DNA of 64,000 nucleotides from Clostridia bacterium (GCA_017469545.1 JAFUGE010000006.1:95167-159166), one strand, 5' to 3'. Positions 44,700 through 63,436 are shown, numbered from the stretch's first letter. Numbers and translations are program-made. The notes: generated by a model not told the origin, from the sequence alone.

Positions 44700-45608
44700 T
44701 TACATTTTTTCGATTTCTTCTACTGAAAGGCCAGTGATTTCAGCAATTGTTTCTACTGGAATTCCTTTGTCCTTAGATTTTTTTGCAATTTCAATTTGCT
44801 TTTCTTTTCTACCACGTTTTTCGCCGCGTTTCTCACCACGTTTCTCACCACGTTTCTCGCCAACCTTTTCGCCCTCTGTTCTAGCATACTGTATTCCACT
44901 ATTGTAGTCTAGCTCCCATTTTCTCTTTAAAAAAGCTAATCTTCTTACAGCTTCGTCTCCCACTAAATATTCATATTCTTCGGAAGCTTCTTTGATTAAA
45001 TTATTTTTCTCCTCAGCCATTTTTACTAACTCCTTTCGTGAGTAATCAATGAATAAAAGCCATTGATCTAATTTCCTGTCAATATTGATTTCACTTCTTA
45101 AGAACTTAGGCAGTTCTATGAAGTGTATCTCTTGTTCTTCTAATGTTTTGCTTTTATTATGCTGCTCTGTCATTTTCCAGATAGTATGGTGCTCCTTAAT
45201 ATCTTTAAAATAATCGAAATTTAAGATACCAATGGCAATTGCTTTGTTTAATTCATTATATGTTTTTCCTTTTTGCAAATCGCTTGTATATAGCTGGTTT
45301 AAATAGTATGTCAATCTTTTTTCAATATTGCCTTGATTCACATTTTGCATTTCAATATCGATAAGAGTGCCATCGTCAAATTCGGCTCTAACATCTAATA
45401 TACCAACTTTATCGTCCAGGTTTTCAGGCAATAATTCTGTCTCTTTTTCGAGAATCACATCTTTGATTCTAATATTCAGAATAGCCTCAAGGAACTCTTT
45501 CACTTTCTCTTTACTTTTTACTCTGCCAAATAGCCTCTTAAAAATCACATCATTTTTAGGCACCAAAATTTCTTCTTCATTAATCATATTATACATCATT
45601 CCTTTCAA
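44700..45608 (-). CDS. Rpn-family (YhgA-like, PD-(D/E)XK) recombination-promoting nuclease / putative transposase
   Basis: N-terminal PKNDVIFKRLFG and ILDVRAEFDDGTLIDIEMQ nuclease core. Internal 12-bp tandem repeats encode (GEKR)4. C-terminal ...ITGLSVEEIEK. Confidence 0.7.
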   Translation of the reverse strand: MKGMMYNMINEEEILVPKNDVIFKRLFGRVKSKEKVKEFLEAILNIRIKDVILEKETELLPENLDDKVGILDVRAEFDDGTLIDIEMQNVNQGNIEKRLTYYLNQLYTSDLQKGKTYNELNKAIAIGILNFDYFKDIKEHHTIWKMTEQHNKSKTLEEQEIHFIELPKFLRSEINIDRKLDQWLLFIDYSRKELVKMAEEKNNLIKEASEEYEYLVGDEAVRRLAFLKRKWELDYNSGIQYARTEGEKVGEKRGEKRGEKRGEKRGRKEKQIEIAKKSKDKGIPVETIAEITGLSVEEIEKM

Positions 45609-46049: not shown

Positions 46050-46067
46050 TACACACACACACACACA
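46050..46067. repeat. (AC)9 dinucleotide microsatellite
   Basis: ACACACACACACACACAC, ~300 bp upstream of the DGR target gene. Confidence 0.9.
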
Positions 46068-46100
46068 CACACGAACGTTTCGTTAAACATAGAATTTGCT

Positions 46101-46246: not shown

Positions 46247-46327
46247 GGGCGGCGTAATACGCCGCCCCTACAAAATATGCATCAATGAGGGATACATGCC
46301 TGTAGGGGCAGCGTATCACGCTGCCCG
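46247..46327. repeat. inverse + forward REP-like pair
   Basis: CGGGCGGCGTAATACGCCGCCCCTACAA ... CTGTAGGGGCAGCGTATCACGCTGCCCG. Confidence 0.85.
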
Positions 46328-46362
46328 AAAAGAGAAATTAAAACGGAAGGAATGATTTAAAA

Positions 46363-47316
46363 ATGAAAAATAAAAAAGGTATTTCATTAATCAGTTTAAT
46401 TATTACAATTGTTGTGATTATTATTTTAGCAACAATTGTAATCAGAGGCACAGGAGATTCTGCAGAAGAAGCAAGGTTTGCAAGATTTGCACAAGAGTTT
46501 TCGGATTTCCAAGATGCAATTGACCAACAATTTTTATTTGCATACAAAAGATATGCCTTAAAAGCGCAGAGTGTTTCTAAGGCACAAATCTATTATGGCC
46601 TAGCGACGGGACAAACAGTAACGAGCAGTACGACACCAGTGGCTGCAGGCACGGTGGCTAGCCTTAGTATTCAGCCGAGTGCGCTTTTAGGCACAAATTA
46701 TTACGAAATTGCAAATGATACGAATATTCCAAATTGGTCGGAGGATAAAGGGTACACAACAGCGAGAAGTGCAGAGCATCACTACATTACAGACGAAGGA
46801 GAACTATTTACTCTACCAGGATATACGTATAGAGAAAATGGCACAACGAGTTACTATGTGAATGCCAGCAAGTATTATACAGGCAGCATGATAGACGTAG
46901 AAGATTTAGCAAGTGGTGGGACAGATTTGGAGAAGTTACAAGCTTTGCTTTTAGGAGATCAATATTATCCTGGATATAGTTTAAGCTTATCTGATGGCAC
47001 GAGTGCAATGTGGCTAGATTATAATACGACTACAGGTGATTTTATAGTAGGATATAACGACGTAGCGTACAGAGTCGTGTATGGCGAGGATACTAATGGA
47101 GATTGGGTAATCACAAGCGTCACATCTGCAGGTAGTGTTAATTTAAGTAGCTTAGGAATGCACAGTGGATCACTTGTGACATATAGAGGAACATTTACGA
47201 GTAGCCAATACTCACAAAATAGAAGTATCTATTGGGTAAATAATATTGATAGTACAGGCTATGATTTTGGATATGATGCTTCGGGGGCGCTCGTGTCTTA
47301 CCGGATTACCGGCTAA
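46363..47316 (+). CDS. candidate DGR target protein: prepilin-like N-terminus (MKNKKG|ISLISL + hydrophobic helix), Tyr/Gly/Thr-rich body, variable-region candidate at the extreme C-terminus
   Basis: The 3' end (47278..47349) shares an adenine-free 18-nt block and a 36-nt post-stop block with the TR at 48333..48416. Between them the gene has TCTTACCGGATTACCGGC where the TR has an A-rich segment. Confidence 0.55.
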   Translation: MKNKKGISLISLIITIVVIIILATIVIRGTGDSAEEARFARFAQEFSDFQDAIDQQFLFAYKRYALKAQSVSKAQIYYGLATGQTVTSSTTPVAAGTVASLSIQPSALLGTNYYEIANDTNIPNWSEDKGYTTARSAEHHYITDEGELFTLPGYTYRENGTTSYYVNASKYYTGSMIDVEDLASGGTDLEKLQALLLGDQYYPGYSLSLSDGTSAMWLDYNTTTGDFIVGYNDVAYRVVYGEDTNGDWVITSVTSAGSVNLSSLGMHSGSLVTYRGTFTSSQYSQNRSIYWVNNIDSTGYDFGYDASGALVSYRITG

Positions 47317-47349
47317 GTGAGCCGTTGCCAGCGGTGTGAGTCGGCGCAG
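47278..47349 (+). other. DGR variable-region (VR) candidate plus IMH-like 3' element
   Basis: GCTTCGGGGGCGCTCGTG (no adenines) + an 18-nt variable segment + TAAGTGAGCCGTTGCCAGCGGTGTGAGTCGGCGCAG. Both flanks are identical to those of the TR. Confidence 0.5.
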
Positions 47350-47404
47350 TTTCTATCCTCTAAAATCCATGGCGCAGAGCGTAACATGTCAGTAAAGTGA
47401 AATA

Positions 47405-47432
47405 CGGGCAGCGTACTACGCTGCCCCTACGG
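47405..47432 (-). repeat. REP-like repeat, inverse
   Basis: CGGGCAGCGTACTACGCTGCCCCTACGG. Confidence 0.85.
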
Positions 47433-47522
47433 ATTGTGCATACATATAATAATTACATGGAAACGTCATTTACCTTCGTGCCCACTTGGCACAACGTATT
47501 TTAAACAAGGAGAAAAACAATA

Positions 47523-47966
47523 ATGAATAAAATCATGATTGCTGTGAAAGAGGTACATCCTCAAGATATATGTATGTATAAAAAAGGCTCGTTTTACCAT
47601 GTGTATGATAAAGATGCTAACATAATGGCGTATTTTTTTGGCTATAAAATAAAAGAGATAAGAGGCGGTGAGATACAGGCGGGTTTTCCGCAAGTCTCTC
47701 TTCAAAAAGTATTGAATAAACTAGAAGAATATCAAATTAATTATGTGGTAATGGATAGAAGAAATCAGTATGATGTAGATTTTAAAAAGAATTTTGCGTT
47801 GGCAAATCAATATGAATTATACTGTCGTTTGGCTCGTAAGTATACGAACTGTTTGAAGCGTATTGATAAGCTATCTCGTTTTTTGAAAGAGAATATTCAT
47901 AAGGAAGAATTTTTAGAATTAATTTCTAGATTGGAAAAAATAGCATATGAGAGAAGAAAAGTTTAA
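47523..47966 (+). CDS. hypothetical protein (147 aa) within the DGR island, low GC
   Basis: ORF with RBS AAGGAG. Overlaps the avd start by 20 nt. No HuH or other recognised motif. Confidence 0.4.
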   Translation: MNKIMIAVKEVHPQDICMYKKGSFYHVYDKDANIMAYFFGYKIKEIRGGEIQAGFPQVSLQKVLNKLEEYQINYVVMDRRNQYDVDFKKNFALANQYELYCRLARKYTNCLKRIDKLSRFLKENIHKEEFLELISRLEKIAYERRKV

Positions 47967-48300
47967 AGTCATTCAGTTTATACGAAAATTAATTTTGGAA
48001 GTGGACAAAGAGCTTGAAAATTTTCCTAAAAAGGATTTAGAGATAAAGAATAGACTTAGAACTTCAAGTTATGATTTGTTGGAACTTGCGTATGAAGCAA
48101 ATTCCACAAAAAATTTGGAGTTTAAGCAGGAATTACTAACGCGAATGATTGCAAAGATAAAAATAATGGACTTTTTACTTAATTTAAGTTATGACAAAAA
48201 TCTACTAACGGAGAGAAAGTATTTGAAGTTAGCAAAAATCATTGACGATATTGCCAAGTATACTAATGGTTGGCAAAAAAATATCGTAGGGCAAAGTTGA
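47947..48300 (+). CDS. avd: four-helix-bundle protein, DGR accessory variability determinant (Avd)-like
   Basis: About 117 aa, with a pattern matching the four-helix-bundle/Avd family (FPKK...L..Q...S). Lies immediately upstream of the TR. Confidence 0.65.
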   Translation: MREEKFKVIQFIRKLILEVDKELENFPKKDLEIKNRLRTSSYDLLELAYEANSTKNLEFKQELLTRMIAKIKIMDFLLNLSYDKNLLTERKYLKLAKIIDDIAKYTNGWQKNIVGQS

Positions 48301-48332
48301 GAAAAGCGCACTTTTTTGGTTAGGGCATTATT

Positions 48333-48416
48333 GCTTCGGGGGCGCTCGTGAATTACGAAAAACCAAAAACCGAAAAATAATAAGTGAGCCGTTGCCAGCG
48401 GTGTGAGTCGGCGCAG
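48333..48416 (+). other. DGR template repeat (TR) candidate with IMH*-like 3' element
   Basis: GCTTCGGGGGCGCTCGTG + AATTACGAAAAACCAAAAACCGAAAAATAA (21 of 30 nt are A) + TAAGTGAGCCGTTGCCAGCGGTGTGAGTCGGCGCAG. Confidence 0.5.
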
Positions 48417-48575
48417 CTTCTAAAAAACTGTGGTTGCATTGACCAATTGTAATGCAAGAGAAGTTTTAGATAGAAACAGATTTTGTCCTTTCGCTTAAAT
48501 AGCGATAAAATAAAAATAGATAATCAAATTTGTTAGTAGCTTGATAGCGAAGGGGAGTTTGATTTAGTACTATTT

Positions 48576-49541
48576 TTAATGGTGCCTTAGTATTAAGGTG
48601 CCATTTTTACATAGGGCTTTGTAAAATACCAATGTTGAGCAAAGGCCATAGAGCGAAACGTTACCACATTGATATCTATGATATTTTAACTTTGTTTTTT
48701 TCTTTATCCTTTGATGCTTAGCATAAATGCCGGCAGTATTTCTTCCTAAAAAGATAAAGTTATTTTTATGATTATAAATTCTCGTTTTCGAATTTAAAGT
48801 GAGTTTTTCTTTTGCTAGAAATTTTTTGATTTCTTCCAGACAGTGTTTTAAATAGTCTTTTGATGGGTGAAATAGTAAAAAATCGTCTTGATATCTCACA
48901 TAGTATTTTACTTTTAGTTGTTCTTTGATAAAGTGATCAAGATCATTTAAATAAAATAAAGCTAGCATTTGACTTGTCATAGTACCGATATGGAGGCCTT
49001 CAGCATTACTGTCGATAATATCAAATACGATTTTTAATGCATCTTTATCTTTGATTCTGCGTGAAATTTTTTGCTTTAAAATATCATGATTAATACTGGC
49101 AAAGAATTTGGTAATATCGCATTTTAAAATATAAAAATTTTTGTATTTTATTTTACATTTTCTTCTATACATATTTGCAAGAGCAATTCCTTTGTTTGTT
49201 CCCATTCTCTTTCTAGAGGCGACGTTTGCGTCTGACAAACACGGAAGTAGGGAGGGATATAGAATATATTTTGTTACTAGGTGATTCACGATTTTATCTT
49301 CTATGCCTTGACTATAAATTTCTCTTGTTTTGGTGTCATGAATAATAAATCTATTATATTTTCCTACTTGATAATTTCTTTCGGATAATGTTTTGTAAGT
49401 CCTTGCGATGTATATAGATTGATAGTCACGAAGCAATTCTTTTTTACGCTTGCTCATTATATTCTGCGAAATCTTTTGATAGGCGTATTTGATATTTTGA
49501 ATATTGCACATGTTTTCATACAAATTATTTTTTCTTTTCAT
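48576..49541 (-). CDS. DGR-type reverse transcriptase
   Basis: RT motifs closely parallel the Bordetella phage Brt: NLYEN..AYQK, KCDITKFFASINH, the DGR-specific motif-4 IGTMTSQ (IGxxxSQ), YVRYQDDFLLF (YxDD), and NFIFLGRN. Start at MKRKNN has RBS GGAGAA. Confidence 0.85.
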   Translation of the reverse strand: MKRKNNLYENMCNIQNIKYAYQKISQNIMSKRKKELLRDYQSIYIARTYKTLSERNYQVGKYNRFIIHDTKTREIYSQGIEDKIVNHLVTKYILYPSLLPCLSDANVASRKRMGTNKGIALANMYRRKCKIKYKNFYILKCDITKFFASINHDILKQKISRRIKDKDALKIVFDIIDSNAEGLHIGTMTSQMLALFYLNDLDHFIKEQLKVKYYVRYQDDFLLFHPSKDYLKHCLEEIKKFLAKEKLTLNSKTRIYNHKNNFIFLGRNTAGIYAKHQRIKKKTKLKYHRYQCGNVSLYGLCSTLVFYKALCKNGTLILRHH

Positions 49542-49564
49542 AAATTTCTCCAATGTGCAGAAAT

Positions 49565-49597
49565 AAAAATGACTTCTCATTTTGAGAAGTCATTTTT
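49565..49597. terminator. bidirectional hairpin between the AKP gene and the RT
   Basis: AAAAATGACTTCTC-AAAAT-GAGAAGTCATTTTT, a perfect 14-bp stem with A/T tails on both sides. Confidence 0.6.
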
Positions 49598-49606
49598 ATT
49601 TCAAAA

Positions 49607-49951
49607 CTATTTTTTTGCTACGGCTTTTTTAGCAACAGCTTTTTTAGCTGGAGCCTTCTTAGCGGCTGGTTTAGCAGCTACTTTTTTAGCTGGAGCTTTC
49701 TTAGCAGCTGGTTTAGCAGCTACCTTTTTAGCTGGAGCTTTCTTAGCAGCTGGTTTAGCAGCTACCTTTTTAGCTGGAGCAGCTTTCTTAGCAGCTGGTT
49801 TAGCAGCTACTTTTTTAGCTGGAGCAGCTTTCTTAGCAGCTGGTTTAGCAGCTGTCTTTTTAGCTGGAGCAGCTTTCTTAGCAGCTGGTTTAGCAGCTAC
49901 CTTTTTAGCTGGAGCAGCTTTTTTAGCTGCAGTTTTCTTTGCTACTGGCAT
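49607..49951 (-). CDS. Ala/Lys/Pro-repeat histone-H1-like basic protein (tandem 36-bp repeats)
   Basis: MPVAKKTAAKKAAPAKKVAAKPAAKK... RBS AGAAGGGGGGG lies upstream. The plus-strand ORF 49419..49976 (AFLAG repeats) is its mirror image. Confidence 0.6.
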   Translation of the reverse strand: MPVAKKTAAKKAAPAKKVAAKPAAKKAAPAKKTAAKPAAKKAAPAKKVAAKPAAKKAAPAKKVAAKPAAKKAPAKKVAAKPAAKKAPAKKVAAKPAAKKAPAKKAVAKKAVAKK

Positions 49952-62677: not shown

Positions 62678-62777
62678 TGTAGGGGCAGCGTATCACGCTG
62701 CCCGATTTGTTTGTCAAAAATAGAAAACATGTGAAAAATTTTGATTTTACGGGCAGCGTGATACGCTGCCCCTACGG
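62678..62777. repeat. forward + inverse REP-like pair
   Basis: TGTAGGGGCAGCGTATCACGCTGCCCG ... CGGGCAGCGTGATACGCTGCCCCTACGG. Confidence 0.85.
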
Positions 62778-63284: not shown

Positions 63285-63412
63285 CCCCGGAAAACGAACT
63301 GTGTTACACTTATTTGGGGCGCGGCAAGGCCCCCGGAAAACGAACTGTGTTACACTTATTTGGGGCGTTGCAAGGCCCCCGGAAAACGAACTACGTTACA
63401 CTTATTTGGGGG
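63285..63412 (+). repeat. tandem array, 2.8 copies of a ~46-bp unit CCCCGGAAAACGAACTGTGTTACACTTATTTGGGGCGCGGCAAGGC
   Basis: Direct, contiguous repeats with no spacers. The unit contains the AAAACGAACTGYGTTACA module also seen at 16008-16027, 16720-16738 and 19712-19729. Confidence 0.85.
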
Positions 63413-63436
63413 GCGAACGCACACGACGAAACAATA

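Follow-up and report, generated by a model that had tools for sequence, protein, structure and literature searches.

Diversity-generating retroelements (DGRs) are thought to require a rigid, variation-tolerant protein scaffold and templates of AAY codons, which avoid stop codons; display of the variable repeat (VR) on a C-type-lectin or Ig-like domain is usual for these elements, but not obligatory. In the element of Bordetella phage BPP-1, with the order mtd-avd-TR-brt, the gene for the reverse transcriptase (RT) is co-directional with the other genes, and the AAC-rich template repeat (TR) is free of stops. DGRs with a gene for the MutS-like accessory protein MSL form the class of 'architecture D' (Wu et al. 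2018, PMC5758913), represented in Legionella and in the Type V pilus loci of Bacteroides; in these DGRs, C-type-lectin domains are varied by AAY-rich TRs with 30-45 adenines, and such canonical AAY templates 'can never' yield a stop (Bacteroides pilus study). Here, a locus with these components is described in a 64,000-nucleotide stretch of DNA from a Clostridia bacterium (GCA_017469545.1 JAFUGE010000006.1:95167-159166), referred to below as the window, with positions counted from its first letter; its source is the metagenome-assembled genome of an uncultured gut representative of Clostridia. The locus is probably a bona fide DGR of the MSL and Avd type, in which mutagenic retrohoming proceeds on a short template. 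This assignment is supported by an RT nearest to the Bordetella enzyme bRT, by the presence of Avd, by the boundary signature of the TR/VR pair, and by hypervariation confined to the VR in sister lineages.

As in BPP-1, whose RT is the closest solved one (8ub7), an Avd protein is encoded, the VR is located at the 3' end of the target gene and is followed by a block resembling the initiation of mutagenic homing (IMH) site, and a structured RNA follows the TR (RT-10 in BPP-1). The locus differs from BPP-1 in the convergent orientation of the RT gene, in the additional gene msl, and in the position of the IMH-like block after the stop codon. The template consists of 30 nt of A-runs with stops, whereas that of BPP-1 is longer, and the chromosomal element has a pilin-like target, while the phage-borne BPP-1 element diversifies a tail-fibre protein of lectin fold. 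Similar to the DGRs of Legionella and Bacteroides, both msl and avd are present, the element is cellular, and the target appears to be surface- or pilus-associated. Unlike the AAY-rich TRs of those systems, the template contains AAA codons and a stop itself, and the pilin-like module of the target resembles type IV pilins with N-terminal methylation, not the Type V pilus.

The RT gene (48576..49541, minus strand) is oriented against the other parts of the cassette, in a convergent arrangement, and its product comprises 321 aa when counted from the Met common to its relatives; a longer form starting at the ATG at 49580 is probably not the product. The motifs IGTMTSQ, YVRYQDDF and NFIFLG, reported for this gene in an earlier reading made from the sequence only, were all found. 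The protein contains both the [ILV]GxxxSQ motif 4 and YxDD of DGR RTs, and IGTMTSQ and YQDD are intact and invariant across 30 relatives. Pfam analysis revealed the domain RVT_1 (E 1.1e-16). The best match in PDB is Bordetella bRT (8ub7, E 2.9e-21, residues 15-307), with weaker matches to group II intron RTs (3e-10) and retron RTs (~2e-8), which supports the DGR identity proposed for the enzyme in the sequence-only reading. Homologues of the RT numbered 1879 at E<=1e-10. Among NCBIfam and PADLOC models, only generic RT models matched the window RT, below their cut-offs, and no defence-system context was found.

The target gene, an open reading frame (ORF) of 317 aa on the plus strand, occupies positions 46363..47316, as had been predicted. 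Its 3' end carries the VR (47277..47349, plus strand), delimited by a repeat search, an A-tolerant TR/VR alignment and the boundary base rule of the family described below; the TR was located on the same strand at 48332..48416 by the repeat search and the A-tolerant alignment. The TR candidate named earlier is thus retained, with its start moved 1 nt upstream from 48333. Both repeats begin with the constant block TGCTTCGGGGGCGCTCGTG (47277-47295 in the VR, 48332-48350 in the TR), which is 19 nt long, so that the adenine-free 18-mer noted previously is real, but forms only a part of it. In the VR, this block is followed by 18 diversified nucleotides, TCTTACCGGATTACCGGC (47296-47313), encoding SYRITG, and in the TR by the mutagenic template AATTACGAAAAACCAAAAACCGAAAAATAA (48351-48380), in which 20 of 30 nucleotides (67%, rather than the 70% given before) are adenines. 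The 36-nt IMH-like block that had been recognised as common to both repeats is located at 47314-47349 in the VR and, as the IMH*-like block, at 48381-48416 in the TR; its first 3 nt in the VR are the target stop codon TAA (47314-47316), and the rest is untranslated. Homology ends at T 47350 in the VR, the first non-homologous base after the TR being C 48417.

The search for the uniqueness of the repeats covered the whole 64-kb window, with a GC content of 37.7%. The 19-nt repeat extends to 25 nt when two mismatches, both at TR adenines, are tolerated, and the 36-nt repeat to 42 nt with the single mismatch of T 47350 against C 48417. Since the repeats are GC-rich, collinear and ~1055-1067 nt apart in a window of such composition, they are not due to chance. 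No third copy of the 19-nt or 36-nt block was found elsewhere in the window, and when positions 47300-49700 were compared with both strands of the full 64 kb by an A-tolerant diagonal scan, only the one pair emerged, without further VRs. The sequence between the blocks of the VR, previously regarded as unrelated to the TR, in fact aligns to it: the alignment allowing A-to-N changes, proposed as a check in the sequence-only reading, gave seven A-to-N changes and one non-A mismatch (two if base 48417, outside the TR, is counted), and the VR segment is 12 nt shorter than that of the TR, which the A-tolerant aligner resolves as two 6-nt deletions.

To place the locus among its relatives, 80 genome loci were fetched around RT homologues, all belonging to uncultured gut or rumen Clostridia; RT orientation was counted in 70 of them, and classic TR/VR pairs were found in 51, giving 52 pooled pairs together with that of the window. 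Classic members of the family (L002-L080, P0003-P0038) have RTs 54-67% identical to that of the window and share the arrangement msl-avd-TR-RNA-RT in both orientations, with msl-avd beside the RT in nearly all loci. Of the 70 loci, 43 (about 60%) have a convergent RT and 27 a co-directional one; therefore, the opposite-strand RT, which had been considered unusual, is the commoner layout, and split TR/RT strand layouts have already been documented (Wu et al. 2018). In the 51 classic loci, TRs are AAC-rich and 82-180 nt long (median 151), with a mutagenic span of median 120 nt, 36% A and a median longest A-run of 2; the distance between TR and VR is 0.87-1.32 kb (median ~1.1), and the VR ends the gene preceding msl. 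Across the 52 pairs, 48% of TR adenines (1115/2323) are mismatched, compared with 2.3% of non-A positions (118/5218).

The family also shares a TR boundary of AG followed by C/A TTCTA. After '...AG', the TR has C or A and the VR a different base in 36/36 pairs, this base being T in 32, and TTCT follows; the window conforms, with C 48417 in the TR and T 47350 in the VR. Judging by this pattern, the 36-nt block may provide a donor/recipient distinction of the IMH/IMH* type, its role in homing being putative. Classic VRs encode a lectin-type WLASP...GxRP segment followed by ~20 more residues, and several classic targets carry the pilin-like N-terminal module of the window target. A classic TR or a lectin-type target was found for RTs P0003, P0005, P0007, P0013, P0016, P0032 and P0038 and in locus L002; the contig of P0044 stops at the RT. 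In four loci (L212-L215), the RT (P0016, 66% identical to the window RT) is without adjoining avd or msl, no TR was recognised beside it, and the next gene, in convergent orientation, encodes a pilin-like protein of 362-368 aa that ends in the classic lectin-type sequence ...WVASPSAG...GFRPLV.

In the neighbour-joining tree of 57 family RTs, the window RT forms an exclusive clade with P0002 and P0006, which are 70% and 67% identical to it, respectively (BLASTP), the RTs of the three lineages differing by 26-35%. Whereas classic elements have TRs of 82-180 nt and a VR followed by further residues, the mutagenic span in this subclade is an A-run stretch of 30-38 nt (56-67% A, A-runs of 5-7) that ends the protein. 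The templates are ...GAGAAAAAA(A/C)CGAAAAATAATAAGTAGG... in P0002, ...CCAAAAAAACCGAAAAATAATAAGTAGT... in P0006 and ...CCAAAAACCGAAAAATAATAAGTGAG... in the window; the TR core CCGAAAAATAATAAGT is common to all three, with one P0002 TR variant beginning with ACG. Read in the target frame, the templates specify Lys-rich tails with stops: SGALV-NYEKPKTEK and two stop codons in the window, where SGALV are the constant residues, SGALV-QVEEKK(T/P)KNNK and one stop codon in P0002, and EGAFLRS-KIKIPKKPKNNK and one stop codon in P0006. Because the templates end in stop codons, the IMH-like block falls past the stop. This block, GGTGTGAGTCGGCGCAG, resembles GGNGTNCGNCCNNTAG, which encodes 'GVRP' in classic relatives, and is apparently a remnant of the lectin strand that is no longer translated; accordingly placed, the GxRP-like DNA of the window VR sits past the stop, and the translated part is without the WLASP...GxRP frame. 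Apart from the pilin-like N-terminus and the template-encoded end, the three targets show no relationship to one another.

Differences in length between TR and VR, present in 7% of DGRs, have been ascribed to RT slippage at sites where mismatches make up most incorporations, and comprise in-frame and frameshifting indels (Wu et al. 2018). There they are occasional and located beside AAC repeats, whereas in the subclade they occur at homopolymeric A in every pair compared (the window, four alleles of the P0002 lineage, and L210). The TR itself also varies among strains of the P0002 lineage (L084-L089), in or beside the A-runs, namely AAAAAAACG vs. AAAAAACCG and CAAGTG vs. CATGTG (e.g., L087, reverse-complement coordinates 2148 and 2164); it is not perfectly invariant within this lineage. 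Viral contigs scanned for the TR core with the boundary motif gave no matches. A metagenome scan with TTCGGGGGCGCTYGT was discarded: its 120 matches were due to chance, in unrelated and mostly high-GC contigs (mean 62%), none in a DGR context.

Variation in the subclade was compared between assemblies. The P0002 lineage is represented by six contigs from different samples with identical RT. Loci L085 and L087/L088 show 0 differences over ~2.3 kb, comprising the target body, msl, avd, TR and RT, while many substitutions and an indel separate their VRs; the loci L084 and L086 behave in the same way. Six tails follow SGALV in this lineage, cluster members included: QVEERLQ, QDAGDK, RVANRKH, RVCEKYQ, RVADRNIVR and a frameshifted 22-residue read-through, HVERRFIMSRLSPRRRSFKSKI. 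Substitutions are located at template adenines, and the VR length differs from that of the TR by +1, -6, -7 and -12 nt. In the P0006 lineage there are two tail alleles, and in the pair of L210 all 12 mismatches are at A, none at non-A positions, and a 1-nt deletion abolishes the stop. In total, at least eight different tails of differing length were found over the two sister lineages in otherwise near-identical loci; these lineages hypervary only within the VR. The polymorphism across strains expected in the sequence-only reading is seen in the sister lineages (six and two tail alleles), but not among five assemblies of the window lineage, which have one VR.

Two accessory genes are located between the target gene and the TR. 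The gene msl (47523..47966, plus strand) overlaps avd by 20 nt and encodes a 147-aa protein matching Pfam MutS_I at residues 6-69 (E 2.8e-7, 31.2 bits). Since it passes the Pfam threshold for MutS domain I (cut-off 20.6), this ORF, earlier considered an unusual insertion, is the MSL accessory protein of 'architecture D' DGRs; the majority of the 80 related loci have msl next to avd. MSL is also present in the Bacteroides pilus DGRs, and host MutS lowers retrohoming 5- to 10-fold in Bacteroides (Bacteroides pilus study). The gene avd (47947..48300, plus strand) encodes a protein of 117 aa, whose assignment as Avd-like agrees with full-length matches to Pfam bAvd (E 1.7e-9, 38.6 bits, cut-off 40) and NCBIfam DivGenRetAVD (E 2e-11, below the cut-off); the identical Avd protein in other assemblies has a precomputed PF22296 match.

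The TR is followed by a structured RNA of 149 nt (48417..48565, plus strand). It matches the Rfam family RT-14 over the full model length with 46.6 bits (E 1.7e-5), under the gathering threshold of 48.1 bits, and at that threshold no RT-14 match was obtained in 16 related loci. The RNA folds with a minimum free energy (MFE) z-score of -4.99 into a structure with three hairpins, in which TTCTAAAAAAC at the 3' edge of the TR pairs with the downstream GTTTTAGA; in the post-TR alignment of 41 loci, compensatory changes were found in 21/25 predicted pairs. The region is presumably the priming or 'spacer' part of the DGR RNA. With a structure backed by covariation, it would work like the RNAs of the RT motifs, while its assignment to RT-14 is not established; in phage BPP-1, the interval from TR to brt contains RT-10, another of the RT-associated RNA motifs (PMC5737381). 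Within the last codons of the convergent RT gene, an 11-bp stem followed by TTTTT (48579..48608, plus strand) is, according to the MFE fold and the base sequence, a likely intrinsic terminator of the msl-avd-TR RNA; a scan of the cassette for promoter and terminator consensus was uninformative and did not list it.

The target protein begins with the leader MKNKKG followed by the hydrophobic helix ISLISLIITIVVIIILA (also given as ISLISLIITIVV... after the same leader) and ends in ...DASGALV, the variable tail SYRITG and the stop. Its match to Pfam N_methyl (E 0.008, 16.2 bits) is under the cut-off of 21.2, the matches to NCBIfam prepilin models are weak, and the +5 residue after the leader is Ser, whereas type IV pilins usually have Glu. 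The segment of residues 1-180 shares homology with the N-terminal module found in classic lectin-type DGR targets, and for these residues AlphaFold2 confidently predicts an N-terminal helix packed on a sheet, with a predicted local distance difference test (pLDDT) score >90. Foldseek comparison of the model with PDB gave nothing at E<0.05, and Pfam detected no domain in the C-terminal half. The weak pilin matches suggest that the target is pilin-like, and it is not evidently of lectin fold. The use of the variable C-terminal peptide in adhesion or evasion is speculative.

The organization of the locus suggests the following order of events. A plus-strand transcription unit would carry the target gene, msl, avd, the TR and the structured RNA, with its probable end at the hairpin in the 3' end of the RT gene. 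The msl-avd-TR-RNA transcript would be bound by a complex of RT and Avd, and priming may take place on the structured RNA that directly follows the TR, so that the cDNA would start at the 3' boundary of the TR. The TR would then be copied with misincorporation opposite adenines, and the cDNA would replace the VR by mutagenic retrohoming, with the two shared blocks (IMH-like, 36 nt; 5', 19 nt) serving as homology. The mismatched heteroduplex may evade mismatch repair with the help of MSL, which possibly shields it from host MutS. Each event would re-randomise a C-terminal tail of ~6-10 residues of the pilin-like protein. Tail length would change as well, through gained or lost stops, as AAA codons may become stops and template stops may mutate away, and through slippage indels; slippage would be favoured by consecutive adenines, which make most incorporations mismatches, and would explain the length change in every pair of the subclade.

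The other explanations of the locus differ in how well they fit these data. It is scarcely conceivable that the RT belongs to a retron, a group II intron or an Abi or DRT defence system, with the repeats unrelated to it. Weak NCBIfam and PADLOC matches to group II, Drt3a, retron and UG models exist, but far under their cut-offs, while bRT leads the matches to solved structures by 11 orders of magnitude and Avd and MSL adjoin; RT-14 is the only RNA family match, with neither intron RNA domains nor retron msr/msd, and the relatives have textbook A-specific TR/VR pairs. An origin of the repeats as duplication or attachment scars around a mobile msl-avd module is very improbable. The direct repeats, ~1.06 kb apart, do bracket exactly msl and avd; however, the same geometry is found in 51 related loci with mismatches limited to the adenines of one copy, the upstream copy forms the in-frame 3' end of a gene, and only this copy varies between samples in the sister lineages. 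The family-wide adenine-specific pattern contradicts both of these explanations.

A quiescent or decaying DGR is less improbable than these, but still rather unlikely: a classic lectin-type ancestor would have lost its lectin VR, leaving the TR/VR pair as a fossil of past homing, with diversification ended in this genome. Such a history would suit a TR much shorter than in the 51 relatives and the resemblance of the 3' block to an untranslated relic of the lectin 'GxRP' strand. Against it, the RT, avd and msl ORFs are intact with catalytic and DGR motifs kept, two sister lineages diversify, and the A-run core of the TR has been kept over three lineages with RTs 26-35% different, which implies selection on the template; moreover, an A-rich TR cannot be created by DGR mutagenesis, which removes adenines. 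Several observations also speak against the preferred assignment of a DGR with retrohoming on a short template, and two of them also suit decay: the window VR recurs unchanged in all of five independent assemblies (L081-L083, L225 and the window), which differ elsewhere by four single-nucleotide polymorphisms, a 42-nt repeat indel and a microsatellite, and the C-terminal half of the target has no recognisable fold (pLDDT <50 in the AlphaFold2 model, residues 183-317). In addition, the TR/VR alignment of the window requires a net loss of 12 nt from the VR as well as one or two mismatches at non-A positions, the Avd and RT-14 scores are slightly under curated cut-offs, and the evidence for variation comes from assemblies, not reads. 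The current activity of the window's own copy is unproven.

MSL genes, split-strand layouts, TR/VR indels and mutagenic regions of ~30 bp have already been described in the DGR literature. The truly atypical features of the locus are the very short homopolymer-A template including a stop codon and the pilin-like, not evidently lectin-type, target. A conserved homopolymer-A template including the stop, a translated VR without 3' constant residues, and a target varied only in its tail on type-IV-pilin-like proteins were not found among the descriptions in Wu 2018, Roux 2021 and the Bacteroides pilus study, which is no proof of novelty. There is about an even chance that the subclade has dropped both the lectin or Ig scaffold and the stop-free AAY template, and that a conserved homopolymer-A template of Lys codons overlapping the stop rewrites, at each retrohoming event, a short free peptide at the C-terminus of pilin-like surface proteins in sequence as well as in length, A-run slippage serving as an inherent source of length variation; such a system would amount to natural random-peptide display. 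If the subclade is functional, mutagenic retrohoming can diversify an unstructured tail, in sequence and in length, as well; the subclade would then be a natural test case for an RT on consecutive adenines, including slippage and indels, and would supply engineered DGR mutagenesis with a very compact template. Type-IV-pilin-like proteins of uncultured gut and rumen Clostridia would join the list of DGR targets. Should the locus be no more than a decaying relic, it is an ordinary DGR.

The cassette is chromosomal; an ABC transporter and a PD-(D/E)XK gene flank it at one end, and dnaX-ybaB-recR at the other. The PD-(D/E)XK gene (44700-45608, minus strand) encodes a 'transposase' family protein (PF12784, E 7.6e-47) with a C-terminal (GEKR)n repeat, 302 or 295 aa long depending on the assembly. 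A GC-rich hairpin 50 nt after the VR was considered as a DGR cruciform and rejected, as it is REP-like, has >30 copies in the window and is absent after the VRs of the sister lineages. The corresponding palindrome of the repetitive extragenic palindromic (REP) type, (GTA)GGGGCAGCGTAnnACGCTGCCC(G), is intergenic, present on both strands, often paired, and occupies >30 sites in the window of 38% GC, e.g., 46305-46330, 47405-47428, 53368-53393 and 62682-62707. A (CA)n microsatellite at 46052-46073, in the REP-rich region upstream of the target gene, differs by 2 nt in length between assemblies. Directly upstream of the RT gene and on the same strand, positions 49607-49951 (minus strand) encode a Lys/Ala-rich protein of 114 aa with tandem repeats of 42-45 nt (AKKAAPAKKVAAKPA...) and a weak histone-H1-like match to Pfam HC2; a terminator-like hairpin (~49560-49602) separates the two genes, and assemblies vary in the number of repeats through a 42-nt indel. 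Three tandem units of 46 nt (CCCCGGAAAACGAACTGTGTTACACTTATTTGGGGCG..GCAAGGC; repeat family D10), each with a GC hairpin, were found at 63285-63422.

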